DNA of 64,000 nucleotides from Granulosicoccus sp. (GTDB lineage: Bacteria > Pseudomonadota > Gammaproteobacteria > Granulosicoccales > Granulosicoccaceae), in the NCBI GenBank assembly GCA_045106855.1, contig JBGCFI010000026.1, positions 40,711-104,710 on the forward strand, read 5' to 3'. Below are positions 1 through 61,956 of this stretch, piece by piece (the stretch's first letter is position 1; every line of letters starts with the position of its first letter). The notes under the pieces were generated by a model. That model did not search any database. It was not told where the DNA came from and worked only from the letters and a program-made list of their open reading frames with translations. Position numbers and translations under genes: made by a program.

Positions 1-3000
1 CGCTGAGATCGCCATCCAGTGTCAGGCCAGTAGCAAGGTTGGAAATCCCGTCACGCGGTGGAACCTGTGCATCAAGCGCTGAAAGTTGACTGACAAACTC
101 TGCAAGATCCGCAAGTGCGCCGCTCGTCAACGACACTTCATCGTGCGCCGTAATAGCGTTTTCAAGGGTGGCAGCAGAACCGTCATGAAGATAAGGGGCG
201 GTTTGCCAGACACCTGCCAATGGCGGTGTATCGATACCCGTCAGGGATGCATCGAGACGTCCTCCACTGTCAGCATCAAGAGTACCAATGTCATGCAGGT
301 TCAATGTGTTGGCAGAGTCCGTAAACGATGATCCGGAATGACACTCGGCACAACCGTTACTGGCAAACACAAGCTTGCCTCGCTCAGCGGCCGCACTCAA
401 GGAACCATCCGACGCACGATAAGGGCTGGGCAGAGGTTCTTCGAGTGACTGCAGGTAATCCGCCAATGCATCAAGATCCGGACTTAATCCTGCTTTGGGA
501 TCACCCAGTGGTTGTGCACGCGACCCTTGATTGAACAAGTCGTTGGACAGCAGGCCCGTACCACCGGCAAAGCCTCTAATCTGTCCTTCGAAATCCTGAA
601 TTTCGTCAAAATTTCCGCTCCAGTGCAATAAGCCGTTTCGTGTCCCACCGTTACCGATCAACGATGTGGTATTGCGGATACCCTCGCCGAATTGCGTGAA
701 ATCCCAGCTGCGCCCGTCATGCCCTGCTTCGTTGTGACACGATGCGCAGCTCATGTAATCGAGAGCTGCAAGGCGGTCGTCACGCGCATCGTAAAACAAT
801 TGCTTGCCGCGAAAAACGCTTGGGCTCAAACGTTCGCCGTCTGTAACGTTAACAACCGCAATTTGATCAACCAGATTATCGCCTTGTCGCACAACGTTGC
901 TGACATCATAGACCCCGACTGAGCGGTCCATGAAATGATGAACAAACAGTTGGTCTCCCGAACTCGACAGCAAAACGGACTGCGGAGCAAATCCGGTATC
1001 GAATCGGGCATATTCAATGTTAGTACTGGCATCAATCAACGCCACCTGTCGATTGCCTTCAAGAGAGGCAAAAAACGTCAGCCCATAAGGGCCAAACGCA
1101 CCGTGACTGGCAACACTGGCATTGTCGTGATCAATGCGCGCACCGAGATTTTCCTGCCCGCTATCAAGATCTATAACCGAGGTGATTGCTCGCACGCTCT
1201 GGTCAAAGACTAACGGCAGGCCATTACGTCGTGTACCACGAAGAATATTATCCTGCTTTGAAGGCACCATCGCCCTCTGGCCATCAGGGGATATCAGAAC
1301 GGGCCCAAGGTAGTTAGGGATGCCAGGGCCCTGATTTTCAGAGCTTGCACGGTTACTGTGACCCAGAAGAATCACGCCATCGGCACTTAACGCTGACGTC
1401 GAGGTGGAAAACAGATGCACCTGCCCACCTTGACCCGTGACTGACGGGTTGGCACCACTCTCACCAGGAACTGGCGGTGTTATGAAGCTGGACACATACA
1501 AGGTACTTCCCGCAGCATCGAGTGACAAATGCCTTGGAAAGTTGCCCACCATACGGCGACGTCTTTCGATGCCACTTTGCGCATCAAGCTGAACCACGGT
1601 GGCGATGCCCTCAAGTGCGATATAGGCACTGTGCTGATTAAACACAATGCCGTGTGGCCGACTGGCAGTATCAAGCATAATGGTTCGCTCAATGGCGCGA
1701 TTGGTGGTATTGATGACAGAAACAGTTGCATCATCCTTATTGACAACCCAGATGCGTCCATTGGGCGCCAGCGCGAGCGCACTGGGGTTACGCCCTACCG
1801 GGATCACATCCAGAACATCGTAGTTATCAGTGCTAACGATACCAACGCTATTGTTATCCGGGTTTACATTCCATAGTTCCGATCGCAAGACAACCTCAGC
1901 CAATGCCGAAGAGGCAACCGCTTGTTCAGAATTTACCGGCTCGTGTACGACCTGGATAAACGTTTTGACCGTTTCATCGCCCGCGGGGGTGCGGACAACA
2001 ACACTGACAACATAACGCCCCTCGGCGACAAAACGATGAGAGGCACTATTGCTTGCCGAAAAGCCAGTGTCACCCGTGCCATCCCCAAAATTCCAGCTGT
2101 AGCTCAGCCCAAAACCCGAAGCATTGGCCGTAAAGGTATTAGTTGATCCGGTTTGTACCGGACTGCTAACAATATCGTCCACTTCAGGTGGATTACCATT
2201 GTTGGGATCCACTGGTTCAACATCTGCGGCAATCCTCAGAGTATGCGCAATGGAAGGCACGCCCTCCTCATCCACAGCAAAAAGCATCCAGTAACCGGGG
2301 GTCGCCACGTTCTCATTACCATGCATTGTGATGGTGTACAGACCATTGGCTTGTTGCGTAAACGCAGGTTTGAACATGCGTACATCGGTATTGACCGCAT
2401 GCGTCACCGAAGACATCTTGATCAGCGTGAAATATGCGATATCTGCCGATGTGGTGACAGAAAAGGGCTGACCATAGCCAATCTCCTCAACAGTACTTTG
2501 CAACGATGGGCGAGCTGCAGCTTGCCCACTGACATCGAAGAGATACGGTGGTGAGAATATCTGTGCATCCTGGTGAGTACCACTACTGAACGGATTGCCG
2601 GCATCGTAACCACCACCTGCCGTGATAACACGACCATCGGTCATCAACAATGCCGTGGAGTGATAATCTCGAGGAACATCCATACCGGCAACAACCCGGA
2701 ACTCACCGGTAGCGGGGTTCCAGATTTCTGCATTCAGGACACTGCCATTGTCCTGAAACTTTGCACCCGTGGTATTACCACCCACCACCATGACTTCACC
2801 GGTGGGCAGAGGAATCATCTGGTGGAACTTGCGTGGGTAATTCATCGCCTGTGTACTTCGTATCACCGGACGACTTCCGTTCAGATTGATAGTGAATGCC
2901 TGGTTATCGGCTTCCCCCTCACCGTTGTTTCGCCATGTACCATCGTTGGTACCGGTCATCAGCAACAGACCTTCGTCATACATGATCTGTATGCCTCCAG

Positions 3001-4207
3001 AGTGTTCGCCATTGTCGGTATCAGGGTTGGCAGGGCTTGAAAAGCCATTGCCGTTCGGGTCGATATAGTGATTCTCTACGGTATCCCAGAAGTGATACAC
3101 ATCACCACTGGGTGCCTGACTCAATAGCGGGAACCACGTCGTATCCCCTCGCTTGGGACGACGTTGACGCATGGTTAGAAAGTCGATGCCATTAAGAACA
3201 CGCCAGCCTGTTTCTTTGGACCATAGATCCGGATTGCGCACATTGGTCGAGCTACCCATTGCAGTCAGGATATTGCCATTGCCAAGCGCAAGCGAGGTGG
3301 GGTACCAGCGACCACCACTGGACATGTTTTCAATTTGCGTCCAGTTGTTCGTCGTCGAGTCGTAGATCGACGTCCATGGACTGTTACCCTGATTACGTCC
3401 TCCGTTTACAAAGACTTTGCCATCGTCCGTCATCGACGTTGCGGCGCAGAACATGTTGTGCCCCAGGTGCAGCGTCTCATCAAACTGGCCAGTCATCGGA
3501 TCCCACGTGGCACTGTAGGTCTGTTCCGTGGTGGGCCAGGTTCGCCGTTCAGATCCGGAGTAGGTCAGGATACGACCATCGGGAAGGTTGGCCATCGATA
3601 CGGCAACCAGAGGCCAGTCGAGAATGTCACCCCATTGCCCTATCTGTGAAGGTGTCTGCAGCTGAACACTCGCACTATGCGAACCATTGCTGGCATCGAG
3701 CGCGTTAAACTGATCCAACGCATTGCCGGATGCATCCAACACCGTCAGATCGTAGACATCCCGGTTGCTACAGCAATCACCACGACCGACAAGCTCGATC
3801 CTGCTCAGGGTTACCGGTGCCGGAAATATCACTCTCACCCACTGATTGGCGGTGGTTTGGGAGTGGTAAAACGTGTGGCGTCCCTGGGCGCCTGGCGCGT
3901 TGTTGCCATCAATAGCGAAGCTGGCTAAAAACCGAGAGTCATACGTGGCCGCCACGTCTATCGTTGCACCCGCAGAAGCCAACGCTGCATCGGTGCCAGT
4001 GTCGGCATTGATGGCGATGATCTCGCCCAACTGGATGATGTCACTGCCGGTGCTGGCGTTAGAGCGCACCACAAGCTCAGTGACGTTAGCCATCTGTCCG
4101 GACGCCGGGGTGCTTGCAAGCACTGCGAACACCATGAGAAACATATGCACCCACGCGCGCTGAACCCGCGCACCTGACGCTTCACCGTTTCCTGATCGAA
4201 TTTCCAT
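1..4207 (-). CDS. Large secreted multidomain protein, 3'-truncated by the window edge: signal peptide, F5/8-type-C (CBM32-like), copper radical oxidase (galactose/glyoxal oxidase-like propeller), DUF1929-like Ig domain, PKD, YVTN-like beta-propeller, di-haem cytochrome c peroxidase/MauG-like
   Basis: Absent from the ORF track because there is no stop inside the window. Hand translation of the minus frame from ATG 4207..4205 gives 1402 codons plus 1 nt with no stop. An alternative in-frame ATG at 4144 starts MFLMVFAVLASTPASG (signal-like). Motifs: NMFCAATSM, GGRWYPT, PRDYHST, SSVTHAVNTD, SYSWNFGDGTGD, GKQLFYD..MSCASCH (nt 734-748), GKLVFASNGCAECH (nt 338-352), APYLHDGSAATLENAI. The four track-listed minus-strand ORFs in 1-4207 share one other frame, and the third minus frame has none. 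Confidence 0.85.
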   Translation of the reverse strand, partial: MEIRSGNGEASGARVQRAWVHMFLMVFAVLASTPASGQMANVTELVVRSNASTGSDIIQLGEIIAINADTGTDAALASAGATIDVAATYDSRFLASFAIDGNNAPGAQGRHTFYHSQTTANQWVRVIFPAPVTLSRIELVGRGDCCSNRDVYDLTVLDASGNALDQFNALDASNGSHSASVQLQTPSQIGQWGDILDWPLVAVSMANLPDGRILTYSGSERRTWPTTEQTYSATWDPMTGQFDETLHLGHNMFCAATSMTDDGKVFVNGGRNQGNSPWTSIYDSTTNNWTQIENMSSGGRWYPTSLALGNGNILTAMGSSTNVRNPDLWSKETGWRVLNGIDFLTMRQRRPKRGDTTWFPLLSQAPSGDVYHFWDTVENHYIDPNGNGFSSPANPDTDNGEHSGGIQIMYDEGLLLMTGTNDGTWRNNGEGEADNQAFTINLNGSRPVIRSTQAMNYPRKFHQMIPLPTGEVMVVGGNTTGAKFQDNGSVLNAEIWNPATGEFRVVAGMDVPRDYHSTALLMTDGRVITAGGGYDAGNPFSSGTHQDAQIFSPPYLFDVSGQAAARPSLQSTVEEIGYGQPFSVTTSADIAYFTLIKMSSVTHAVNTDVRMFKPAFTQQANGLYTITMHGNENVATPGYWMLFAVDEEGVPSIAHTLRIAADVEPVDPNNGNPPEVDDIVSSPVQTGSTNTFTANASGFGLSYSWNFGDGTGDTGFSASNSASHRFVAEGRYVVSVVVRTPAGDETVKTFIQVVHEPVNSEQAVASSALAEVVLRSELWNVNPDNNSVGIVSTDNYDVLDVIPVGRNPSALALAPNGRIWVVNKDDATVSVINTTNRAIERTIMLDTASRPHGIVFNQHSAYIALEGIATVVQLDAQSGIERRRRMVGNFPRHLSLDAAGSTLYVSSFITPPVPGESGANPSVTGQGGQVHLFSTSTSALSADGVILLGHSNRASSENQGPGIPNYLGPVLISPDGQRAMVPSKQDNILRGTRRNGLPLVFDQSVRAITSVIDLDSGQENLGARIDHDNASVASHGAFGPYGLTFFASLEGNRQVALIDASTNIEYARFDTGFAPQSVLLSSSGDQLFVHHFMDRSVGVYDVSNVVRQGDNLVDQIAVVNVTDGERLSPSVFRGKQLFYDARDDRLAALDYMSCASCHNEAGHDGRSWDFTQFGEGIRNTTSLIGNGGTRNGLLHWSGNFDEIQDFEGQIRGFAGGTGLLSNDLFNQGSRAQPLGDPKAGLSPDLDALADYLQSLEEPLPSPYRASDGSLSAAAERGKLVFASNGCAECHSGSSFTDSANTLNLHDIGTLDADSGGRLDASLTGIDTPPLAGVWQTAPYLHDGSAATLENAITAHDEVSLTSGALADLAEFVSQLSALDAQVPPRDGISNLATGLTLDGDLS

Positions 4208-4600
4208 TGCTCACGCAGCCGTTAATCATAAGGTCGAATGGCTATCGAGCACGCAGACAGCAACCCAAAGGGAGTCATATATCGGGGATATCGACCCGCT
4301 CAGGATCTGCTGAATCGTGGGCTTTCAATGATGTGATGAAGTCCATAGGCCTCGTTAATGAGGCAGGTGGCATGTCTTGATTTTATGTTGTAGCCCATCT
4401 TGCAGAAGTCGCCTTTGCGTCTGATCAACCAGATGCCTACGTCAGCGATGTATGCCTTTTGCGCATGTCTTCGATTCGCAAAGCCAATAAAATAAAACGA
4501 TAGAGTAATGTCTATGCAATGAAGAGCCGGTTTGCAACAAGCCTTGAACACTCTTGATAAAAAATGTGCATTAGCTTCAAAAACACATGGGACGTGCCAT

Positions 4601-5704
4601 ATGAAATCGGCAACAAGAACACGATATATAATCACGCAAATGACAGCAAGCTTCTTCTTGCTATTGACAATACTCGTGCTTTCAACACCACTGCATGCTC
4701 AGCAGTTATTTGACCAGAGGGAGTCAATAAAATCAGGATTGTCCATTCGCGTAGACAACGATTTTTTTGTCAATGCAGATTTAGACAAAGACTATACCGG
4801 TGGAATCGCCCTCGCCTTCTCTGGCAGACAAGCACTGCTTAGCCCGTTCTCTTTTGATGGTGTTCGGGCAAAGCTCAATCAACTGACCGGCTTCAACCGC
4901 TTGTACGACCCTGGTCAGACATTCAAACTGCATGCGATTGAAACGGGTTTTGTTTTTTTTACGCCGTCAGATCTAAGTATTGAAGCGCCCCAACCTGAAG
5001 AACACCCTTATGCCAGCTTGTTCTTTCTGGGTAACAGCCAACAAGTTGTAGCGCCGACTCGACAGCTTGCTTTCAATTCCATGTTTACCATCGGCGCTCT
5101 CGGGCTGGATTTTGCTGAAGATGTTCATGCCGGGGCGCATGAGGCGACCGGTAGTAATCCACCCAAAGGCTGGGCCAACCAAATATCTTCCAAAGGGGAA
5201 ATCACCGCTAAATATAGTGTTGGCATACAAAAATTGGTTGCACAGAAGCGGTTACTTTTTAATCAAAGAGCTGAGTTTAAAGTTGCAGCCGAAGGCGACA
5301 TCGGATTTACAACAGGTGCAGGTGTTGGGTTCAGCGCCAGAGTTGGACGCATACACACGCCATGGTGGGGATTTAATCCACAACAGTCTGATTATGCCAG
5401 CCAAGGTTCACCTATGGCCAGACATAGCAATGGCCTAACTGGTAGAGACGTGTTTTTTTATTTTGGAGCGAATATAAACCACAACCTCTATAACGCAATA
5501 TTACAAGGTCAATTCAAAGACAGCGCAGTAAGCTATAGCGCTAGTGAAATCAATCGTACAAGCACAGAGCTCTGGGCCGGCGTATCACATCAGGTTTCAC
5601 GCCATTGGAATGTCGCTGGATTCGTTCGCAGTCACACTCCTGAATTGAAAAATACTCTGAAAAATAGCCTCTGGGGTGGCTTGACGCTTAACCGATCTAT
5701 GTAA
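4601..5704 (+). CDS. Outer-membrane LpxR-like (DUF2219 family, lipid A 3'-O-deacylase-like) protein
   Basis: ORF 4532..5704. The likely start is ATG 4601 (MKSATRTRYIITQMTASFFLLLTILVLSTPLHAQQ, signal-like). The mature N-terminus SIRVDNDFFVNADLDKDYTGGIALAF resembles the DND / D.DYT.G signature I associate with LpxR. The composition is beta-barrel-like. The start is uncertain (4532, 4601 or 4640). Confidence 0.5.
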   Translation: MKSATRTRYIITQMTASFFLLLTILVLSTPLHAQQLFDQRESIKSGLSIRVDNDFFVNADLDKDYTGGIALAFSGRQALLSPFSFDGVRAKLNQLTGFNRLYDPGQTFKLHAIETGFVFFTPSDLSIEAPQPEEHPYASLFFLGNSQQVVAPTRQLAFNSMFTIGALGLDFAEDVHAGAHEATGSNPPKGWANQISSKGEITAKYSVGIQKLVAQKRLLFNQRAEFKVAAEGDIGFTTGAGVGFSARVGRIHTPWWGFNPQQSDYASQGSPMARHSNGLTGRDVFFYFGANINHNLYNAILQGQFKDSAVSYSASEINRTSTELWAGVSHQVSRHWNVAGFVRSHTPELKNTLKNSLWGGLTLNRSM

Positions 5705-6026
5705 GGCCATTGATAATTTCTTGCGAGAATGTGGGGCTGGAAATATACCGGCAACTACGTCCCAGATAACACGCAACGCGTTCACTGATCGTCTTGACCA
5801 GCTGGTTGAACTGTTTGCTATCAATACGCATTATTCAATTGTCGCTGACTTGTTATAACCCCTGGCATGTTATTCCACAGTCGTAGTTTGGATTGTGTAA
5901 AGTCGATCTAGGAATGAGGCAACAAACATCTCGTTACATCGCATAGAGCGGGTATTAGCCATAAACAATGATATATCCTAAGGTTGCTGCCTATTTCAGG
6001 TCATAGCGCACTAAAAGGATTTAGAC

Positions 6027-6815
6027 ATGGGTGAACAACGGCTCTATTTTGCCAATAGAAGCATTTTAAAGTCAGAACAAGGTATTTGCAGAGCACGATG
6101 CCTCCTTCGCTTGTTGTCTAGTATCCCGTTTCTTCAGATGTGTGCAGGATTAGCTGCCTGCAAATCTATAGGTGACTCGTTCCACAGGCCTGTTCAAAGG
6201 CACACCCAATCACAAGTAGAATTCGTCCGCGCTTTCGAAAATCTCAAAGGCATAGAAAAAAGGATAATATCTGAACGTCCACAGAATATAGAGTCCTTAT
6301 TACTACTATTTTTGCATAAGCAGATGAGCGAAGTCCGCACTTCGGAGGTCAAACAGCACTGTAGTCCGAATTCGAAGGATGTCGGTTCCTGCCTTTATCA
6401 AGTGCACGATCAGCTTAGTGTCTGTTGTAGCTCCAGTGTTCGGCGTGTCGTTGGAATTCCGGGTATTGCGAAACAGCAAATGTATGGGGGCCTGTTGCTA
6501 CCTGCGGGTAGCGAAACCGACATTAGTGGTGACTGCACATCCAGTCTGGTTACGCTTCACGAAAGCGTGAAATACGGTGACTTTTATTTAGGCCCGGGCC
6601 AAGTCCTTTTTGATGACGAGCGGCAAATTAGTTATGCTGATTTGACACATGGGCAAAGCTACAAAGGATTGATATTAGCTGGGGGTATGCCGAATCGTGT
6701 TCAATTTGAAGCACCCAACAGAATAGTCAGCGCAACCCTCGCTAAAGACTCCTCCTATCAAGGTTATCATCTGCGAGCTGGTACAAATGTTGATTTTATA
6801 CTAACGGAGCTTTGA
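6027..6815 (+). CDS. Hypothetical protein, segment 1 of 3 of the frame-interrupted repeat-protein gene
   Basis: ORF track entry of 262 aa with a Shine-Dalgarno-like AAGGA upstream. The C-terminal third already carries the repeat motif (GDFYLGPGQVLFDDERQISYADL, YKGLILAGGMPNRVQFEAPNRIVSATL). Confidence 0.5.
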   Translation: MGEQRLYFANRSILKSEQGICRARCLLRLLSSIPFLQMCAGLAACKSIGDSFHRPVQRHTQSQVEFVRAFENLKGIEKRIISERPQNIESLLLLFLHKQMSEVRTSEVKQHCSPNSKDVGSCLYQVHDQLSVCCSSSVRRVVGIPGIAKQQMYGGLLLPAGSETDISGDCTSSLVTLHESVKYGDFYLGPGQVLFDDERQISYADLTHGQSYKGLILAGGMPNRVQFEAPNRIVSATLAKDSSYQGYHLRAGTNVDFILTEL

Positions 6816-7813
6816 AGCAGGCGACTCTGGTCAAGTCAAAACGGATTGGTAACTATCTGATTCCTCCAGGAAAGGTATCGTTTCTTGAAACAGGCTTTGT
6901 GCCCAGAGCAAAGCTTGCTGAACCTCTCAACACACCTAGTGGCGTGATTCCGCGTTACACCGACGTACATTTGGATGAACAGACCGGTTTACAGCAGATC
7001 TACATTAAACACGATTGGAAAATTAGTAGTTTGCCTGTGCCGAAGAGAATGTGGCTCGAAGTCCATTCTAATGGACAATTGAAGTACCTGGATACCACGT
7101 TTTATCCGATAGGCTTTAAAGGACGTGTATATCCGGAATCAACTCGTCTGGAATTTTCGGCCGATGGCCGTGTCGTTCGTGATAGCTACACAGATGGATC
7201 TCTAAGGCCTGTGACCAGTTATTCCGATTTTCATCCACCTCATACTGAATTGCAGCAGGCACAAAAAATCGGATCACTAGAATTTCCAAAACACAGTTTT
7301 GTCTACAAACGGCATGATGGCTCTCTTAGATTCGCAATACCCCCATATTCGATGATTTACCAAGGTTTTTTACTCGATGCTTCGCTGATTCGATTTAGTC
7401 ACAGCAATCTCGTGTCTGAAGCAACGCTTGGCGCAGAAAAAAACATATCCGGAATAGTATTGCCAAAGGGCTCAACCATTAAATTTGATACCAATGGGAG
7501 CTTGGATAGTGTATTTCTTAGAGATCGAGTAAAAGTAGATGGTAATTGGCTTGTAGAAAAACAAACTATAAAAATCCACCCTAATGGAACGCTCAAACAA
7601 TATACAGTAGAGGGAGGCGCAACATTTTCAGGCCTTGAGTTTGTTCGGCCAGTGAGTTGGGAGTTTTACGATACTGGAAATGTCAGATCAATTTATACTG
7701 AAGAACCCTTTGAGTACGATGGTGTCGTGTTTGATGGAAACACGGTTTTTTTCATCCGAATGGCTCTGCATCATCTGGCGTTCTCAATACCGTCGCCACT
7801 GTTCAAGGCGTGA
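6812..7813 (+). CDS. Hypothetical repeat protein, segment 2 of 3
   Basis: ORF track entry of 333 aa. Its start is only a TTG overlapping the upstream stop, and this frame is open from 6794. Repeats include LEVHSNGQLKYL, LEFSADGRVVRD, IKFDTNGSLDSV, IKIHPNGTLKQY and WEFYDTGNVRSI. Confidence 0.45.
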   Translation: MKQATLVKSKRIGNYLIPPGKVSFLETGFVPRAKLAEPLNTPSGVIPRYTDVHLDEQTGLQQIYIKHDWKISSLPVPKRMWLEVHSNGQLKYLDTTFYPIGFKGRVYPESTRLEFSADGRVVRDSYTDGSLRPVTSYSDFHPPHTELQQAQKIGSLEFPKHSFVYKRHDGSLRFAIPPYSMIYQGFLLDASLIRFSHSNLVSEATLGAEKNISGIVLPKGSTIKFDTNGSLDSVFLRDRVKVDGNWLVEKQTIKIHPNGTLKQYTVEGGATFSGLEFVRPVSWEFYDTGNVRSIYTEEPFEYDGVVFDGNTVFFIRMALHHLAFSIPSPLFKA

Positions 7814-8145
7814 AATATGCCACAGGTACCGAACTATTGTTTGACTTAGACGGTAAGCGCATCCATTCCAGGGCTGGCAAGCCGCGTTGGAAAGATGGTA
7901 AGGCTCCGTCGATTCGCAAAAACATTGAGAACAGTATAGTTACCACGACAGTTCTGAGTAATTCCCATAAATCTGTCCGGGTTCTGTCGTCTATTTTGAA
8001 CGAAGAAGAGTGCGAAAAAATGTTTCCAGCAGACGGGGAAAGTACATTTCCCGGAGGATTCAGTCTTAATCAACCGCAGATGGCTGTTCTGTTAGGGTGT
8101 GGTGCAACGGATGAACAGTCCGGTATATTAAGTAGATCTCCTTAG
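7810..8145 (+). CDS. Hypothetical protein, segment 3 of 3
   Basis: ORF track entry of 111 aa. Its start is a GTG overlapping the upstream stop. The frame is open upstream and there encodes HPNGSASSGVLNTVATVQGVKYATGTELLFDLDGK, a continuation of the repeats. Confidence 0.4.
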   Translation: MKYATGTELLFDLDGKRIHSRAGKPRWKDGKAPSIRKNIENSIVTTTVLSNSHKSVRVLSSILNEEECEKMFPADGESTFPGGFSLNQPQMAVLLGCGATDEQSGILSRSP

Positions 8146-8251
8146 GCTGCAACATCCCATTATGGAGTGACGAATGGCAAAATTAAGTGTCCTGCCCTCG
8201 GGGTTGTAAAGTTCCATGCCAGTGTCGATTCAGCCAATAGAAAACGGTTGA

Positions 8252-8285
8252 CTCTCATAGTTTTCAGCAACTATGAGAGATCTTT
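8252..8285 (+). terminator. Hairpin, possible intrinsic terminator after the repeat-protein gene
   Basis: Perfect 11-bp stem ctctcatagtt (8252-8262) / aactatgagag (8269-8279) with a 6-nt loop ttcagc, followed by atctttgt. Confidence 0.45.
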
Positions 8286-8346
8286 GTCATGTTCGCGTTG
8301 GCAGAAGAACAGGTACCGGTGGGGTATACGATGTTTGGCTTACTAG

Positions 8347-8390
8347 ATTCCCGCCTGCGCGGGAATGACGATAGTGCGCGGGAATGACGC
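8347..8390. repeat. REP-like palindromic element (ATTCCCGC-ctgc-GCGGGAAT followed by GACGAT) plus an adjacent half copy gcgcgggaatgacgc
   Basis: Perfect 8-bp inverted repeat 8347-8354 / 8359-8366, with a half copy at 8376-8390. A related copy lies at 54120-54139, and the flanks are similar over about 55 bp (ggggtat...agattcccgc...gcgggaatgacgat). Confidence 0.7.
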
Positions 8391-8438
8391 GTTGTCGGAG
8401 GATGATGATTCTCTAACCGTCTTCTGATATTCGAATCT

Positions 8439-9353
8439 CTATCCGTCTTCTGCGACTCGGTTTCGACGTGCTCTGGGATGAGACTCGTCATACACTTTCG
8501 CCAGATGCTGAAAATCCAGGTGGGTATATATTTGTGTCGTACTGATATCTGCATGACCCAGCAATTCCTGCACGGCTCGCAAGTCTCCACTACTTTCCAG
8601 CATATGACTGGCGAAGGAGTGCCTGAGCATATGCGGGTAACAATCCCGATCCAGGCCTTGCGACTCAGCCAGTTTTTTCAAACGCATCTGTACGGTTCTG
8701 GGGGCAATACGTTTGCCACGCGAACTCAGGAAAACCGCTGAACAATCCGCACCTGGTAGGCTGCGGCGATAACCAAGCCACTTGTTAATGGCATCAACCG
8801 CATGTTCACCAACGGGCAAATCACGCACCTTGCTACCTTTTCCGGTAACGCGAACCTGACCAACGCTCAGGTCGAGATCTGCCAGGTCAATACTTACAAG
8901 CTCGGCCAGTCGTAAACCCGATGAGTACATCAATTCGAACATCGCCAGATCCCGACAGATCATGGGATCATTGAGGTTCTGCGACAGCAGTCTGCTGACC
9001 TCCTCCGGGGCCAGCGTCGCCGGCAATGCGTTCTTGTCCTTCGGCGCCAGAATATCCTGCGCCGGATTGACTCTGGCAATTCCATGATCAATCATGAAGT
9101 TGTACAAGCCACGAACCGCTGACAAGCGCCGGGCAAGACTTCTGCCTGCTATACCATCACGATGCTGTTCGGCCACAATTGCGCGCACATCGCTTGCGGA
9201 TAAGGACTGCCAGTTTTCTATATCGCGCTCAGCTGCCGAACGGGCTACCGCTTTCAGATCCCGCGCGTAGTTGCTGACAGTGTGCGGCGAAGCACGACGT
9301 GCAACGCTCAGCTCTTCCAGATACCGATCTATGGCACTTTGAAAATCGCTCAC
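8439..9353 (-). CDS. xerC: Tyrosine site-specific recombinase XerC
   Basis: 304 aa. N-terminal core-binding region (YLEELSVARRASPHTVSNYARDL) and C-terminal catalytic motifs (HMLRHSFASH, LLGHADISTTQIYTHL). Conserved dapF-DUF484-xerC context. Confidence 0.93.
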   Translation of the reverse strand: MSDFQSAIDRYLEELSVARRASPHTVSNYARDLKAVARSAAERDIENWQSLSASDVRAIVAEQHRDGIAGRSLARRLSAVRGLYNFMIDHGIARVNPAQDILAPKDKNALPATLAPEEVSRLLSQNLNDPMICRDLAMFELMYSSGLRLAELVSIDLADLDLSVGQVRVTGKGSKVRDLPVGEHAVDAINKWLGYRRSLPGADCSAVFLSSRGKRIAPRTVQMRLKKLAESQGLDRDCYPHMLRHSFASHMLESSGDLRAVQELLGHADISTTQIYTHLDFQHLAKVYDESHPRARRNRVAEDG

Positions 9354-10153
9354 TTTTTCGCTGCCTGTGCATGGGCAACGTAACTGTGAATGCGTCGACT
9401 GAGAAGCTCTCCCATCTGGTTGAGAAACATGACGCCTTTGTTAGCGCCGAACCGAGATTCGTCACGGCTGGTCAGCATAACGACTCCAAGCTTGCGTTCA
9501 AACTGAAGTGGAATCATGGCCGCCGATCCCACGTTTGCATGATCAGGTCCGACCATCGCACGAAGCTGCTCGTCGCTTGGCATGCCACAGACTGTTTCAC
9601 GCCCTTTGAACAGTGCGTCGAACTGCTTTACGCGTTTATCAGTGTGCCTTACGGTGGTAGCGCCTTTGACCTGCTCAAGCTTGGGAGCGCGTTGCCGCGG
9701 GCTAGTCTTGGGCTTGCCGGCCTTGTCGGTGGCTTTATTTTCGCTTGCCTTCTTGCGAGGCGCTCTCTTTGGAGCTGGTGCGATCAACATCAGATGCACA
9801 TCCTCTGCATTGAAACTGGTTCGTAGGCAGTTCTGGGTTAACTTGACGATGTCGGGCAAGTTAGAAGCCGTTATGATTTCCTGATTGAGCAAATGCAGAC
9901 GCTCATGCAAGGACTCATTCTGCCTCGCCACCGCAATCAGATCACAAAGACTCTTTTCAAGATGTCCGCACTTGCCTCGAAGCACGCTAACCTGTTTCTC
10001 GATTAACGACACCGCCTTGCCCGAGTCATGCGGGACCCGCAACCTCGTCAGAATATCCTGATGGCTGACAAAGAATTCCGGGTTACGGATAAGGTACTTG
10101 ACGACGGCATCGGGGTCGATTTCGTTGCCAATATCGGTCTGTTCAGGTTGCAT
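9350..10153 (-). CDS. DUF484 (YigA-like) family protein
   Basis: 267 aa. N-terminus VVKYLIRNPEFFVSHQDILTRLRVPH is typical of DUF484. It sits in the conserved position between dapF and xerC, with a 4-nt overlap with xerC. It contains a basic Lys/Pro-rich insert (APKRAPRKKASENKATDKAGKPKTSPRQRAPK). Confidence 0.8.
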   Translation of the reverse strand: MQPEQTDIGNEIDPDAVVKYLIRNPEFFVSHQDILTRLRVPHDSGKAVSLIEKQVSVLRGKCGHLEKSLCDLIAVARQNESLHERLHLLNQEIITASNLPDIVKLTQNCLRTSFNAEDVHLMLIAPAPKRAPRKKASENKATDKAGKPKTSPRQRAPKLEQVKGATTVRHTDKRVKQFDALFKGRETVCGMPSDEQLRAMVGPDHANVGSAAMIPLQFERKLGVVMLTSRDESRFGANKGVMFLNQMGELLSRRIHSYVAHAQAAKK

Positions 10154-10160
10154 GTTATCG

Positions 10161-10994
10161 CTACATTCTTGTTTGTCCCTCGAAGACTGTAGAACATGGG
10201 CCAGTCATTTCAATCGAAGCTTGCACATTAGGCCAATGTATTTTCAAATTTCCACCGGGTAAGCTCACGATAACGGTATTGTCAAGGAGCCCTTGTGAGT
10301 GAGCGATGGCCACTGCTGCACAGGCTCCAGTGCCGCATGCGCGTGTCTCACCAACCCCCCTTTCGAAGACTCGCAACCGGATATGCTGCTTATCGATGAT
10401 CTGCATGAAACCGACGTTGACACGATTCGGGAATCTTTCATGTCGTTCAACCAGTGCCCCCAGATGCTCTACATCTGCTACACATAGATCATCGACGTGA
10501 AAAAGTACATGTGGATTACCAATACTGGCAGCACCAACCTTAAAGCGATGTCCGTCGACCTCAAGGTCGTAAAAATCACGACGTTCCTCAGCAACAAAAG
10601 GGATACGCGCTGGCTCGAATTGAGGCACACCCATCTGGACCATGACTTGCTCATCATGCTGCAACTGCAGAGTGATGATGCCCAATGCGGTATTGACAGG
10701 AATGGAACGACTTTGCGTAAGTTTCCGGTCTGTGACAAAACGGGCAAAGCAGCGTGCCCCATTGCCGCAGTGTTCAACCTCATCACCATCGGCATTGAAT
10801 ATTCGGTAATCGAATTCCGCCTGTTCCACCGTTGGCGCACCCACGACGAGCAGTTGATCAAAGCCAATACCGGTATGTCGATCCGACCAGCGTTGAACCG
10901 TATCACTATCAAGAATAACGCCACCATCCCGGTTATCAATGACCATGAAGTCATTGCCCAGACCGTGCATCTTGGTAAATTCAACGGACTTCAC
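10161..10994 (-). CDS. dapF: Diaminopimelate epimerase
   Basis: FTKMHGLGNDFMVIDN, CGNGARCFARFV and ACGTGACAA motifs. The ORF track start (11150) overlaps lysA. GTG 10994..10992 forms a GTGA overlap with the lysA stop and gives MKSVEFTKMHG, matching the usual N-terminal length. ATG 10970 is an alternative start. Confidence 0.92.
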   Translation of the reverse strand: MKSVEFTKMHGLGNDFMVIDNRDGGVILDSDTVQRWSDRHTGIGFDQLLVVGAPTVEQAEFDYRIFNADGDEVEHCGNGARCFARFVTDRKLTQSRSIPVNTALGIITLQLQHDEQVMVQMGVPQFEPARIPFVAEERRDFYDLEVDGHRFKVGAASIGNPHVLFHVDDLCVADVEHLGALVERHERFPNRVNVGFMQIIDKQHIRLRVFERGVGETRACGTGACAAVAIAHSQGLLDNTVIVSLPGGNLKIHWPNVQASIEMTGPCSTVFEGQTRM

Positions 10995-12238
10995 GGCAAA
11001 AGAAATTCCTGTGCAAAAAGTGCTTCGGTTTCCTCTCGGGAGCGAACCAGGAACGCATTGTCTCCGTCGACCATCACCTCGGCAGCACGGGGACGCGTAT
11101 TGTAATTTGAGCTCATCACGAACGCGTAGGCACCAGCGGAGCGTACACATAGTAAATCGTTTTCCGCAATCGCAAGTTGACGTTCTTTACCGAGGAAATC
11201 TGCCGACTCGCAGATGGGTCCGACCACATCATAAACACGTGACTCACGCTCTAGAGTCTCAACCTCTTCTATCGCCTGCCAGGCGCTATACAGTGCCGGG
11301 CGTATCAGATCATTCATGGCAGCATCGACCACGGCAAAATGCCTATCTTCATTACTTTTCAGGTATTCAACGCGCGTTAAGAGAATGCCAGCCTGACCAA
11401 CGATATAACGGCCGGGCTCAACCAGTATCTGCAGGTCTCTGTCGCCAATTACGTTTTTAACACAGTCAGCCCATGCCTTTACATCCAGGCTGGTATCTCC
11501 CTCACCATAGCCAATACCCTGACCACCACCCACATCGATGTGGCTCAGATGAATACCTTCTTCCTCCAGCGAATCCACCATCGATACCAGTAGTTTCACA
11601 GCATCCTCATAAGGTTCAAGGCTGGTCAGCTGCGAACCAATGTGGCAATCAATCCCTTGCACGTCAATGGAAGGATGTTGTGCCGCACGTCGATACGTCT
11701 GCATGGCGTCCGCCATGTTGATACCGAACTTGTTTTCTTTAAGACCAGTAGAGATATACGGGTGCGTCATGGCATCAACATCAGGGTTGATGCGCAGGGA
11801 AACCGGCGCAACCACACCATGCGCCTTGGCAACCTCTGCCAGCCTATCAAGTTCTGAGACCGATTCGACATTAAAACAGCGAATTCCCGCCTCGAGAGCC
11901 GCAACCATCTCACGCTCGTTCTTGCCGACACCTGAAAAAACAATAGATGATGGCTTGCCACCGGCAGCCAGTACACGTTTGAGCTCCCCTATGGAGACGA
12001 TGTCAAAGCCCGAACCCAGACGCGCCAGGGTGTCGAGAATAGCCAGATTACTGTTGGCCTTGACTGCGTAACAGATGAGATGGTCAGAACCACTGAGTGC
12101 ATCGGCGAATTCGCGCCATGCGTGTTCGATACTGCCTCGGTTGTACACGTATAACGGTGTACCAAATTCCTCAGCCAGCTCACTGCAGCGCTTGTTATCG
12201 GTCATCAATGACCCGGATTGTCGGTAGAAAGGCGTCAT
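10991..12238 (-). CDS. lysA: Diaminopimelate decarboxylase
   Basis: 415 aa. PLP-dependent group IV decarboxylase pattern (ICYAVKANSN, IDVGGGQGIGY, CESADFLG). lptM-lysA-dapF context. Confidence 0.95.
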   Translation of the reverse strand: MTPFYRQSGSLMTDNKRCSELAEEFGTPLYVYNRGSIEHAWREFADALSGSDHLICYAVKANSNLAILDTLARLGSGFDIVSIGELKRVLAAGGKPSSIVFSGVGKNEREMVAALEAGIRCFNVESVSELDRLAEVAKAHGVVAPVSLRINPDVDAMTHPYISTGLKENKFGINMADAMQTYRRAAQHPSIDVQGIDCHIGSQLTSLEPYEDAVKLLVSMVDSLEEEGIHLSHIDVGGGQGIGYGEGDTSLDVKAWADCVKNVIGDRDLQILVEPGRYIVGQAGILLTRVEYLKSNEDRHFAVVDAAMNDLIRPALYSAWQAIEEVETLERESRVYDVVGPICESADFLGKERQLAIAENDLLCVRSAGAYAFVMSSNYNTRPRAAEVMVDGDNAFLVRSREETEALFAQEFLLP

Positions 12239-12272
12239 GTTGGAAATGAAATATCTAAATTAAAGTGGGAAG

Positions 12273-12485
12273 CTATTGCGTCGCTGGAGTCGCTGATTTT
12301 TTCTTGACTGTTTCTGCTTCATCTGTGTTGCCCTCCTCTGACTCGATGATACGTTCGTTTGCGATTTCGAGCTCTTTTACCAGTTGCAGGTCGGGCGGCA
12401 AAAACAATTCCCCCTTGTTGCCGCAACCCGCGAGAATCAGCACCGCAAAAAAAACGCACAGATACGCTGTCAGTAGTCGGAACAT
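12273..12485 (-). CDS. lptM: Small lipoprotein LptM/YifL family
   Basis: 70 aa. MFRLLTAYLCVFFAVLILAGCGNKGELFLPP has the lipobox LAGC followed by G.KG.L..PP as in YifL. It sits immediately upstream of lysA. Confidence 0.7.
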   Translation of the reverse strand: MFRLLTAYLCVFFAVLILAGCGNKGELFLPPDLQLVKELEIANERIIESEEGNTDEAETVKKKSATPATQ

Positions 12486-12561
12486 AACGCAACCTCACTT
12501 GCACTACAGGGCATTGGAGTATACTCGCCTGCGCACATCAACCGAGTTTTCAAGCCGCCTC

Positions 12562-13239
12562 ATGAGTACCAAATTGCTCGACAGCATCGAAATCAGCACT
12601 GCTGACCAGTGCGAATACAGCGTTATCTGGTTGCACGGGCTGGGAGCCAGCGGCCATGACTTCGAACCCTTGGTACCTGAGCTGAACCTGCTGGAACGGC
12701 CGGGCGTCCGATTTGTGTTCCCGCACGCACCCATCCGTCCGATTACCATCAACGGCGGTGCCGCCATGCGCGGCTGGTACGATATCAACTCTCTGGATTT
12801 CGACGAACGCGAACAGGATACAGCGGGGATTCGCGAGTCGGCAGCACACGTCAACGCACTGATAGATGCCGAAATAGCACGCGGCATACCGTCAACCAAT
12901 ATCCTGCTCGCAGGCTTCTCCCAGGGCGGTGCAGTTGCCCTGTTCACAGCGCTGACCACGGCACACAAGCTCGGCGGTATCATGGCTTTGTCTACGTACC
13001 TGCCCATACAGGAAGCCGCGCTTCAGGAGCTGACAGAGCACGGCAGACAATTGCCCGTGTTTATGGCACACGGACAATTCGACGACGTTATCCAGATTCA
13101 CTATGCCGAGCAGTCACACACGGTGCTTGCTGAACAAGGGATTGAGGTGCAGTGGCATAGCTATGCCATGGCGCACAGTGTCAGTAGCGAAGAGGTCACT
13201 GACATTTCTGCGTGGCTAAAACGTCAGTTCGGCATGTAG
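12562..13239 (+). CDS. Alpha/beta-hydrolase carboxylesterase/phospholipase family protein
   Basis: ATG 12562 ([11 protein letters not shown]...). The part of ORF 12265..13239 upstream of this overlaps lptM antisense and is compositionally odd. Motifs are [14 protein letters not shown] and the GFSQGGA nucleophile elbow. Confidence 0.85.
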
Positions 13240-14714
13240 GCAGTTGCCAGGCGCTGCCCTGCCCTTTTTACTGCGGCCTCTACTGCATCAGGAGCGGTGC
13301 CACCGATATGACGGCGGGCGGTTACAGACCCCTCAAGCGTGAGTACCTCGAACACATCATCCTTGATGTGAGTACTGAAGCTCTGCAGCTGTTCGAGTGT
13401 CAGCTCTGACAGGTCAAGATCATTGTGCATGCCAAATGCCACAGCTTCACCAACGACCTCATGCGCATCTCTAAAAGCCAGTCCTTGCCTGACCAGATAG
13501 TCAGCAAGATCGGTTGCCGTGGAAAATCCGGCCTTGGCAGCCTGCCGCATCGCATCGTGACGAACCTCTATAGCCGGTAGCATATCGGCAAACGCACACA
13601 GACACCCAAGCCAGGTGTCGACCGAATCGAACAAGGGCTCTTTGTCTTCCTGATTATCCTTGTTGTAGGCCAGAGGCTGACTTTTCATTAAGGTTAATAG
13701 CGACATGAGATTGCCGTAGGCGCGTCCGGTCTTGCCTCTGACAAGCTCAGGGACATCCGGGTTTTTCTTCTGCGGCATGATCGACGAGCCGGTACAAAAG
13801 CGATCGGGCAAATCGATGAAACGAAACTGCGCCGACATCCACAGAACAAGTTCCTCAGAGATTCGAGACAGATGCATGAGACTAATGGCTGTGGCCGAGC
13901 AGAATTCGATCGCAAAATCTCGATCACTCACAGCGTCCAGCGAATTTTCGCAGATCGCATCAAAGCCAAGAAGCTGGCATGTTATTTCCCGGTCTATTGG
14001 GTAGGATGTGCCCGCAAGCGCAGCCGCACCCAACGGCATGCGGTTAAGCCGTTTACGGGTATCCGCCAGCCTCTCCAGATCGCGCAATAGCATCTCGAAC
14101 CAGGCCATGACGTGGTGCCCGAACGTAACGGGCTGAGCCGTCTGCAAATGCGTAAATCCCGGCATGATTGTGGCTTTTTCGGCCATTGCCAGCTCCAACA
14201 GACCCTCAAGCAGTCGTGTAAGTTGTCCGGCGGCCTGATCACAAGCGTCCCGCAAATACAATCTGATGTCGGTTGCCACCTGATCGTTCCTGGATCTGCC
14301 GGTGTGTAGTCTTTTTCCTGCATCACCTATCCGCGCGGTCAACGCAGCTTCGATATTCATGTGAACATCTTCAAGAGCCACCGACCAATCGAACCCACCC
14401 GTCTCGATATCATTCTGCACGGCATCCAGGCCAGTCTGTATTGCGTCATGATCGCTGGCACTCAAAACACCCGTGCGCTGTAACATCGTGGCGTGTGCCC
14501 GCGAACCCTGGATATCCTGTCGGTACATGCGTTTGTCAAAATTCACCGACGCCGTAAATTCCTGCACGAACTCATCAGTGGATTCTGAAAATCGACCTCC
14601 CCACATACCCTGACCTGATAATTCACCCGGCTGAGAATCACGCGGCCTGGTTGCTGTCTTTTTTTCAGTGGATTGTTTTGCTTCTGTGCTACCAGGTTTA
14701 TCAGACTGACTCAT
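13224..14714 (-). CDS. argH: Argininosuccinate lyase
   Basis: 496 aa. [20 protein letters not shown] and [12 protein letters not shown] signature motifs. There is a 36-aa Ser/Thr/Lys-rich N-terminal extension, and ATG 14606 (MWGGRF) is an alternative start. Confidence 0.95.
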
Positions 14715-60926: not shown

Positions 60927-60993
60927 TATGCGCAAGTTGATGGGTAAGGCAAATTGACCTATTGATGGTGTAAGAGAATACAATTACGGCGCA

Positions 60994-61956
60994 TCAGGCG
61001 CTGCATTTTTTGGTAACGCTGCTCAGTTGTAAAAAAATATCCAGGCACAACGCCAGGATTATGATACAGCCACCGACAATTGCCAGAGGTGGCATATCTG
61101 TGCCAATGAGTATGGCTGCTGAGCCAATGGCTACAATAATTTCCGACATCGTCAAGAGGGCGGACGTGGGTGCAGGAATCTGGCTTGCGCCCCATATCTG
61201 GGCGATCATGGCCGGATACAATGCAAAGATGCCAAAGACAATGGCAACAACCGCAATAAGTGATGTTCTGTTTTGAGCTGTGGTGTCTTCGACGATAAAT
61301 GATGTTGCCTGTGACGGTAGTACATTGTCGGTAAACTGAAGAAACAGTATGGCCAGAAGAGACAGGAATGCGGCGCTGGCAATAGCCACCAATGTTCTTG
61401 AGTAAGCACAGCTTTGCCCGTCGGCTCTGAGCAAACTCAGACTGATACCCCAGAAGACGCCTGAAGCAATTGCGCACCAGTCCCCTACAGATTGTGGAAC
61501 AGGAAAACCATCGCCTTCACTCAGCAGCAACCACAAACCAGAGAATGCGATAAACATAATGAGCAGTCTTGAGGCATTGATCGGCTCTCCATAGATTAAT
61601 CGTGCAGCAAGGGTTGTCCACAGCGGTAACAGATAAAATAGAAAAATGACGCGGATGACGTCTGTGTACATAAGGGCAATAAAGTACAGCGTAGTCGCCA
61701 GGCCCAAAACAAATCCGGAACGCACAGTTTCCAATTGTTCAAGATCTGTCAAATTGCCACGCAGCCGCATCATTATCAGCGACGGGATTAGCGCTGCCGC
61801 CATGACAAACGCCAATGCCCATAACGCGTTGATACCCAGCGATTCCATGTAACGTAGTGGAATCCAGAACAATCCCCACAAAGACGAACCTGTAACGACC
61901 GCAATTGCACCGGTTCGGTGTGTGTTTGTGTATCCTGAGGCAGTTGTAATTCCCAT
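60994..61956 (-). CDS. DMT (EamA) family transporter
   Basis: 320 aa with about 10 TM helices in a duplicated EamA-like arrangement. Confidence 0.8.
   Translation of the reverse strand: MGITTASGYTNTHRTGAIAVVTGSSLWGLFWIPLRYMESLGINALWALAFVMAAALIPSLIMMRLRGNLTDLEQLETVRSGFVLGLATTLYFIALMYTDVIRVIFLFYLLPLWTTLAARLIYGEPINASRLLIMFIAFSGLWLLLSEGDGFPVPQSVGDWCAIASGVFWGISLSLLRADGQSCAYSRTLVAIASAAFLSLLAILFLQFTDNVLPSQATSFIVEDTTAQNRTSLIAVVAIVFGIFALYPAMIAQIWGASQIPAPTSALLTMSEIIVAIGSAAILIGTDMPPLAIVGGCIIILALCLDIFLQLSSVTKKCSA

Follow-up and report, generated by a model that had tools for sequence, protein, structure and literature searches.

A galactose-oxidase-like copper radical oxidase fused to a propeller and di-haem cytochrome c module in Granulosicoccus, a widespread but uncharacterised architecture

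The stretch of DNA analysed here (the window) comprises 64,000 nucleotides of Granulosicoccus sp. (contig JBGCFI010000026.1). At its left edge the minus strand carries the 5′ part, codons 1–1402 out of 1937, of a gene in which a copper radical oxidase is fused to a propeller and di-haem module. The frame begins with the ATG at position 4207 and remains open for 1402 codons up to the edge of the window (positions 1–4207), and as a TGA lies in the same frame two codons upstream (4211–4213), position 4207 is the first possible start. An earlier note on this DNA had described the frame as open over its whole length and as missed by open reading frame (ORF) callers that need a stop. Translation and the ORF listing reproduce this; the list shows only short ORFs in this region because it leaves out those that run off the end of the window. 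Contrary to the wording of the note, the frame cannot be called hidden, since it is the window edge that removes the stop and the gene is already annotated by NCBI. The corresponding database protein from a Granulosicoccus metagenome-assembled genome (P0001, 1937 residues) is named “galactose oxidase-like domain-containing protein” and its residues 1–1402 are identical to the translation of the window. The window therefore holds the N-terminal 72% of the protein and the remaining 535 codons lie beyond its left edge. The C-terminus could be taken from the database protein. That the frame is open by chance, or is an assembly artefact or a pseudogene, has only the stop codon missing inside the window in its favor, and we give this explanation practically no weight: a random open frame of 1402 codons at ∼53% GC is essentially impossible, a full-length protein in the database has the same sequence, and there are hundreds of full-length homologues which keep the catalytic residues. 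Thus, the frame is a real gene coding for a giant secreted or exported multi-domain redox protein.

The domain order and the domain coordinates of the earlier note were all reproduced by comparison with Pfam, NCBIfam, and PDB sequences (the coordinates of the gene given here and below are on the minus strand). The N-terminus, as read from the sequence, resembles a signal peptide with a basic n-region, a hydrophobic core and a cleavage-like ASG/Q site (residues 1–37, 4097–4207). It is followed by an F5/8-type-C domain (CBM32-like, galactose-binding-like, 3653–4090), which has its aligned counterpart at the N-terminus of galactose oxidase and is matched by Pfam at residues 98–163 when the region is scanned alone (32.3 bits, cut-off 27.8). 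The seven-bladed kelch propeller of the copper radical oxidase (residues ∼190–565, 2513–3640) is supported by Pfam (Kelch/Glyoxal_oxid_N) and by PDB alignment, and the galactose-oxidase-like E-set domain (DUF1929) occupies residues 566–660 (2228–2512; GO-like_E_set, 7.6e-21). A PKD domain (residues 682–753, 1949–2164; Pfam, 6.2e-11) is the sole domain linking the oxidase to the following module, so that this member of the family has a minimal linker. The module comprises a YVTN-type beta-propeller (residues ∼769–1120, 848–1903), recognized by TIGR02276 (38.5 bits, cut-off 27.85), by a structure model and by a fold match to hydrazine synthase (HZS) beta, and a di-haem cytochrome c domain of the CCP/MauG/HZS-gamma superfamily (residues ∼1125–1385, 53–835). 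The latter is supported by Pfam, NCBIfam, and PDB alignment, the Pfam matches being CCP_MauG at residues 1134–1204 (31.9 bits, cut-off 25.6) and RoxA-like_Cyt-c at residues 1327–1353 (34.2 bits, cut-off 26.7). The predicted location of the protein is periplasmic or on the cell surface.

Beyond the window the database protein continues with two copies of a domain of ∼180 residues (residues ∼1403–1590 and ∼1700–1880) with a Big_9 Ig domain between them. The repeated domain has no match in Pfam, NCBIfam or PDB and carries the pattern LDGxxxDW...W(M)AHD...AYRNDG.... The C-terminus consists of a Gly/Ser-rich segment followed by a short hydrophobic stretch and Arg-Arg (FWLLILLALGCRR). This tail may be a sorting or anchoring signal. 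Its similarity to JDVT-CTERM is below threshold (E = 0.033, 14 bits, cut-off 27), and we make no claim to a sorting signal. Some relatives of the protein end in GlyGly-CTERM-like tails.

The oxidase half could be assigned with the help of the known galactose oxidase structures. Residues 138–659 match galactose oxidases in the PDB, with 9g8h as the best hit (3.5e-76) and 1gof at ∼1e-52, and with the AA5_2 oxidases (9g8h/9g43, 1gof and the alcohol oxidase CgrAlcOx, 5c86) the protein shares the F5/8-type-C domain, the seven-bladed kelch propeller, and the C-terminal E-set domain. A literature search on the entries 9G8H/9G43 found nothing relevant. The four copper ligands and the cysteine of the Tyr–Cys cross-link of galactose oxidase all have counterparts in the alignment: Cys254 (3446–3448) corresponds to the cross-link partner Cys228, Tyr302, in the pair Trp301-Tyr302 (3302–3307), to the radical-bearing copper ligand Tyr272, Tyr515-His516 (2660–2665) to the ligands Tyr495-His496, and His603 (2399–2401), in the E-set domain, to the ligand His581. 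When conservation was counted in the 120 best database homologues, Tyr302, Tyr515, His516, and His603 were invariant (120/120) and Cys254 was present in 116. Judged from these alignments the oxidase half belongs to the AA5-type, galactose-oxidase-like copper radical oxidases, since it has the propeller, the E-set domain, the copper ligands, and the cysteine. The oxidase domains proposed in the earlier note are thus supported by both the hidden Markov model search and the PDB search.

Nevertheless, the protein differs from galactose oxidase in several respects. It is bacterial, and ∼1270 additional residues, among them two haem sites, follow the oxidase part. Where galactose oxidase has its stacking Trp290 (GGSW in 6xlt/1gof), the protein has Ser320 (3248–3250) in a loop which is three residues shorter, the family consensus at this position being Ala, and in this trait it departs from galactose 6-oxidase proper, the archetype of AA5_2. 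On the other hand, the residue preceding the radical tyrosine, Trp301 (3305–3307), is invariant in the family, which has RWY where galactose oxidase has RGY, and this tryptophan may be an alternative shield for the Tyr–Cys cofactor. The protein is also not an orthologue of GlxA, as the NCBIfam GlxA model gives 146.6 bits with a cut-off of 800.

The two haem motifs of the module are CASCH (residues 1154–1158, 734–748) at the position of the catalytic haem and CAECH (residues 1286–1290, 338–352) at the position of the electron-transfer haem. Exactly two CXXCH motifs are found in 119/120 homologues, and the same number keeps both motifs together with His1195 and Trp1196. The latter (620–622), listed as invariant, aligns with the inter-haem Trp94 of the cytochrome c peroxidase (CCP) of Pseudomonas aeruginosa. 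His1341 is a histidine in 116/120 homologues. The position of the axial ligand Met275 of the P. aeruginosa enzyme is occupied by His1355 (143–145), 17 residues past the proline of the PY(L/F)HDG motif, and all 115 homologues that have a residue in this column have histidine. The second haem is accordingly predicted to be a bis-His haem, like the haem gamma-II of hydrazine synthase (PMC12758564). By alignment alone the calcium site residues Asn79, Thr256, and Pro258 of the CCP correspond to Asn1179, Thr1336, and Pro1338; these are conserved in ≥90% (Asn1179), 113/120 (Thr or Ser at 1336), and 116/120 (Pro1338) of the homologues. According to the alignment the first haem keeps the open catalytic-site layout of the CCPs with conserved polar residues, and it is probably constitutively open, because no counterpart of the distal His71 of the CCP could be aligned. 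Many residues of the propeller are invariant too, for example NPDN 782–785, E916, E957, KQD 984–986, and R1006.

The module is thus related to, but distinct from, the well-studied di-haem enzymes. The bacterial CCPs (P. aeruginosa 1eb7, Shewanella 3o5c, Nitrosomonas 1iqc) share the two CXXCH motifs, the inter-haem tryptophan, the calcium site, and the PY(L/F/M)HDG motif; they differ in having the axial Met275 and the distal His71, and the haem domain of the fusion family is always preceded by a propeller. In MauG and MbnH the axial ligand of the six-coordinate haem is a tyrosine, whereas the fusion module has a histidine there, and the MauG and MbnH models score only 42.7 bits with cut-offs of 444 and 363. 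On account of the axial residue we did not class the module as a bacterial CCP or as a MauG-type enzyme. The closest relative of known structure is hydrazine synthase. The best PDB sequence match of the haem domain is HZS gamma (5c2v_C, 5.7e-13), with the bacterial CCPs at 1e-9 to 1e-10, and the best NCBIfam model on the haem side is hydrazine_BC, which describes the HZS beta-gamma fusion (62.7 bits, cut-off 1250). In hydrazine synthase (5c2v; beta and gamma are fused in Scalindua) a propeller is likewise followed by a di-haem CCP-like domain which, in the alignment, has an axial histidine giving the bis-His second haem. An AlphaFold model of residues 755–1402 is confident, with a predicted local distance difference test (pLDDT) value of 86.8 and a predicted template modelling (pTM) score of 0.89, which argues for a rigid propeller–haem unit. 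In a Foldseek search against the PDB, HZS beta (5c2v_B) ranked second (2e-15, TM 0.72 on the target, root-mean-square deviation 4.0 Å) behind an archaeal YVTN-PKD S-layer fragment; the list consists mostly of propellers and thus speaks for the propeller fold and not for the fold of the haem domain.

Nevertheless, the module is not a hydrazine synthase. The low score of the hydrazine_BC model, the residue at the position of gamma His144, which is Trp1196, and the context all speak against this assignment: the module is joined to an oxidase, neither an HZS alpha partner (in the flanking genes of 86 loci) nor an anammox context was found, and it occurs in aerobic hosts such as Pseudomonadota and Verrucomicrobiota. 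In this respect it resembles the non-anammox fused HZS beta-gamma-like homologues, which have a tryptophan in place of gamma His144, are “highly prevalent in environmental bacteria” and whose function is not known (PMC12758564, 2025). We conclude that the propeller and the di-haem domain form one conserved unit resembling the HZS beta-gamma pair and, from the sequence comparisons, that this unit belongs to a widespread, uncharacterised HZS beta-gamma-like branch of the CCP/MauG superfamily. The earlier note was therefore right in recognizing a YVTN propeller and a di-haem CCP/MauG domain (CCP_MauG is above its cut-off and both CXXCH motifs are there), but the two are better seen as a single unit than as independent domains, and the invariant axial histidine sets this unit apart from a canonical CCP or MauG.

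The fusion is not restricted to Granulosicoccus. When one genome per species was scanned, at least 597 related stretches came up, and the best 80 mostly extend from the oxidase through the haems. Hosts among the matches listed are Granulosicoccaceae, Woeseiaceae, Steroidobacteraceae, Burkholderiales, and Methylophilaceae as well as Verrucomicrobiota, Chloroflexota, Acidobacteriota, and Polyangiales; cultured hosts include Variovorax, Rhizobacter sp. Root1221, Undibacterium curvum, Steroidobacter agaridevorans, and Paracidovorax wautersii DSM 27981. For almost all of the 120 best database matches, Pfam domains of the oxidase as well as of the CCP are listed. With the module as the only query, an exhaustive search yielded 1305 representatives of 50%-identity clusters at E ≤ 1e-30. 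Among the 251 closest proteins 224 contain the oxidase, and the 27 others are mostly N-terminally truncated fragments; in 223/224 fusions the oxidase precedes the module. Both halves are under strong purifying conservation. The module is the more conserved of the two (mean pairwise distance 0.48 vs 0.55 for the oxidase), and between the distance matrices of oxidase and module there is a correlation of r = 0.56, a value reached by 0/500 permutations.

The fusion, which the earlier note could not place among characterised enzymes, is thus common (at least 597 stretches, 224/251 proteins), and in this sense it is no rarity. Nevertheless, our literature search found neither a paper describing the fusion nor a characterised enzyme with the oxidase and di-haem architecture, and a review of copper radical oxidases does not mention cytochrome fusions. 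The fusion is therefore widespread but uncharacterised and built from known parts: the galactose-oxidase, PKD, propeller, and di-haem parts are known, and for their covalent combination we found no described precedent in the literature.

How might the two halves work together? It is well established that copper radical oxidases form H2O2 from O2, that they become active, in the Cu(II)-tyrosyl form, only after a one-electron oxidation, and that peroxide inactivates them (PMC12951238). Two partnerships between such an oxidase and a haem enzyme have been described. In Streptomyces, the copper radical oxidase GlxA is functionally tied to the DyP peroxidase DtpA, which uses the H2O2 made by GlxA, and to Sco (PMC4736821). 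In the fungi Colletotrichum and Magnaporthe, the gene of the copper radical alcohol oxidase AlcOx forms a pair with that of a haem peroxidase by which the oxidase is activated (PMC9770985, PMC12951238). The fusion resembles both systems in the pairing of a copper radical oxidase with a haem enzyme. It differs from the first in that GlxA and DtpA are separate proteins and DtpA is a DyP enzyme with b-haem whereas the fusion module is a di-haem c protein, and from the second in that the fungal partners are two co-secreted proteins encoded by head-to-head genes, with a peroxidase of unrelated fold.

By analogy with these systems we tentatively favor, with a confidence that stays slightly below an even chance, the reading that the protein is a tethered, proximity-coupled oxidase–peroxidase pair, which in bacteria would correspond, in covalent form, to GlxA-DtpA-Sco and to the fungal AlcOx–peroxidase pair. 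The substrate of the oxidase would be a primary alcohol, probably of a glycan held by the lectin domain, and O2 would be reduced to H2O2. The tethered di-haem module would take up this H2O2 at its open first haem, and the resulting high-valent haem state would keep the oxidase in the Cu(II)-tyrosyl form, or remove damaging peroxide, or both. The coupling would be brought about by enforced proximity and would not need a sealed channel. The self-contained machine of the earlier note, which would make peroxide and consume or channel it, is to be taken as a hypothesis. We rejected a sealed peroxide channel between oxidase and module, against which it speaks that the linker between them varies from ∼100 to ∼1500 residues (median 416) in the fusion proteins; coupling by proximity is plausible in view of the known GlxA-DtpA and AlcOx–peroxidase partnerships. 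A model of residues 190–1389 with a pTM of 0.80 hints that the oxidase and the module are packed in a defined way in this member with its short linker.

Several observations weigh against such a pair. The module departs from the canonical peroxidases: the methionine ligand of the high-potential haem is replaced by histidine, the distal histidine has no counterpart, and the catalytic Gln104/Glu114 of the CCP do not align cleanly. Its closest solved relative, hydrazine synthase, reduces NO and not H2O2. The pTM of 0.80 gives no copper-to-haem distance. The wide range of linker lengths is a further point. Finally, there are modules without oxidase. In two Granulosicoccaceae proteins of FG-GAP-PKD-module-CHRD architecture (L034, 4816–10950, plus strand; L065, 4732–11133, plus strand) FG-GAP repeats replace the oxidase, which shows that the module is portable, and in another protein (P0249) the module stands alone. 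Coupling to peroxide made by the oxidase is therefore not obligatory for the module. The L034 and L065 paralogues have a third CXXCH between the propeller/di-haem module and the CHRD domain.

These modules without oxidase lead to a different explanation, namely that the two halves are independent enzymes on one cell-surface scaffold. The module would then run a reaction of its own with an external electron donor, for instance generic peroxide detoxification or N-oxide chemistry similar to that of HZS gamma, and the fusion would merely co-localise both enzymes. Besides the portability of the PKD-propeller-di-haem unit and the highly variable linker, this explanation is favored by the bis-His second haem, which resembles the entry point for external electrons in HZS gamma, and by the huge size of the superfamily with its 1305 cluster representatives. 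On the contrary, the closest proteins are nearly all oxidase fusions with the same domain order, the two halves co-vary, the model suggests packing, and functional oxidase–peroxidase pairs are known twice independently. We consider independent modules to be rather unlikely on balance, but this explanation remains substantial because there are modules without an oxidase and the relationship to proven peroxidases is only distant.

The genes adjoining the fusion gene in other genomes give further hints. When the neighboring genes of 86 related loci were clustered, a gene for a SCO1/SenC-type copper chaperone (Pfam, 9e-25) was found adjacent to the fusion gene and on the same strand in 26 loci. 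This adjacency is a further likeness to the GlxA-DtpA-Sco system and supports the tethered pair, as it matches the Sco-dependent maturation of GlxA. The SCO1/SenC neighbors lie mostly in loci of the Burkholderiales type (for example L018 4886–5566, L016 2379–3056, and L006 16495–17157, all on the plus strand). In 17/86 loci the fusion gene adjoins a gene coding for a protein with an N-terminal YtkA domain and a CCP_MauG domain (526–645 residues when intact), for example in L001 (15802–17466, minus strand), L002 (16184–17797, plus strand), L003 (13836–15416, plus strand), and L006 (6219–7319, plus strand). In an 88%-identical Granulosicoccus relative this gene lies downstream of the fusion gene in convergent orientation. 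Its product scores best against the MauG/MbnH models and has tyrosine at the axial position (PYMHDGRF..L..V...YY) and is thus a protein-modifying enzyme of the MauG type; the fusion protein might receive a protein-derived cofactor from it. Only L006 has both the SCO1/SenC and the MauG-type neighbor. A recurrent HZS alpha-like neighbor was not found in the flanking genes of the 86 loci.

The Sco neighbors would also fit a module that is a built-in maturase, acting only once in a MauG-like manner in the formation of the Tyr–Cys cross-link or in copper loading. At low copper DtpA and Sco are indeed needed for the maturation of GlxA (PMC4736821). In addition, the CCP/MauG superfamily includes protein-modifying enzymes. 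Nevertheless, we regard a maturase as improbable. The module has the axial histidine and not the tyrosine of MauG and MbnH, this tyrosine being carried instead by the separate neighbor; the cross-link of galactose oxidase forms autocatalytically with copper and O2; and a module of 650 residues that is more conserved than the oxidase it serves would be unlikely for a single event.

In a further alternative the haems are an electron sink. The reduced oxidase would pass its two electrons to the haems and from there to an external acceptor, so that the protein would be a dehydrogenase producing little or no H2O2. Electron transfer is the typical role of a c-type haem with bis-His ligation, and a C-terminal anchor could hold the protein near the membrane or the surface. 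However, copper radical oxidases are not known to use any acceptor but O2, the potential of bis-His haems is usually low so that transfer from Cu(I)/Tyr would be uphill, and the first haem keeps the CCP-like open catalytic-site layout. An electron sink therefore appears even less probable to us than a maturase.

As biocatalysts, copper radical oxidases are of importance, but their activation depends on a peroxidase or oxidant supplied from outside, and the H2O2 that they make damages them. A tethered partnership of oxidase and haem module would be a natural self-activating or self-protecting design, and it would mean that the oxidase–peroxidase partnership, known from Streptomyces and from fungi pathogenic to plants, had a third origin in Gram-negative bacteria, this time as a fusion. 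The steady association with a peroxide-producing oxidase also provides a testable hypothesis for the HZS beta-gamma-like family. As a bolder speculation, to which we assign a small though real chance, the fusions could be a large unrecognised class of extracytoplasmic two-step oxidative enzymes of bacteria: H2O2 from the oxidase would feed the propeller/di-haem site, where the same glycan or other polymer would undergo a further specific step, an oxidation or a peroxygenation, and not mere detoxification of peroxide would take place, and in some lineages the protein would be additionally modified by the MauG-type neighbor. This would give a first function to the non-anammox HZS beta-gamma-like family and a new bacterial route of polymer oxidation. 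The cultured hosts Variovorax, Paracidovorax wautersii DSM 27981, Steroidobacter agaridevorans, and Undibacterium curvum open the fusion to genetics and biochemistry.

In the 64-kb window itself there is no second oxidase, module, Sco or MauG-like gene. The genes upstream of the fusion gene, LpxR, three ORFs without family match and the cluster xerC-DUF484-dapF-lysA, give no functional hint and look unrelated to it. The three consecutive ORFs between LpxR and the xerC cluster (262, 333, and 111 residues, without Pfam match; 6027–8145, plus strand) have a GC content of ∼0.43–0.46, compared with 0.53 in the fusion gene, and this region may be an acquired island. The only other ORF of the window with a CXXCH motif lies far from the fusion gene (60962–61516, minus strand, 185 residues from stop to stop). 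Finally, the fusion can be present in several copies in one genome: at least four paralogues are encoded on the chromosome of a Methylophilaceae metagenome-assembled genome (OZ252007.1; L013, L017, L020, and L032), and L006 has two copies in tandem (1–6143 and 8001–14288).

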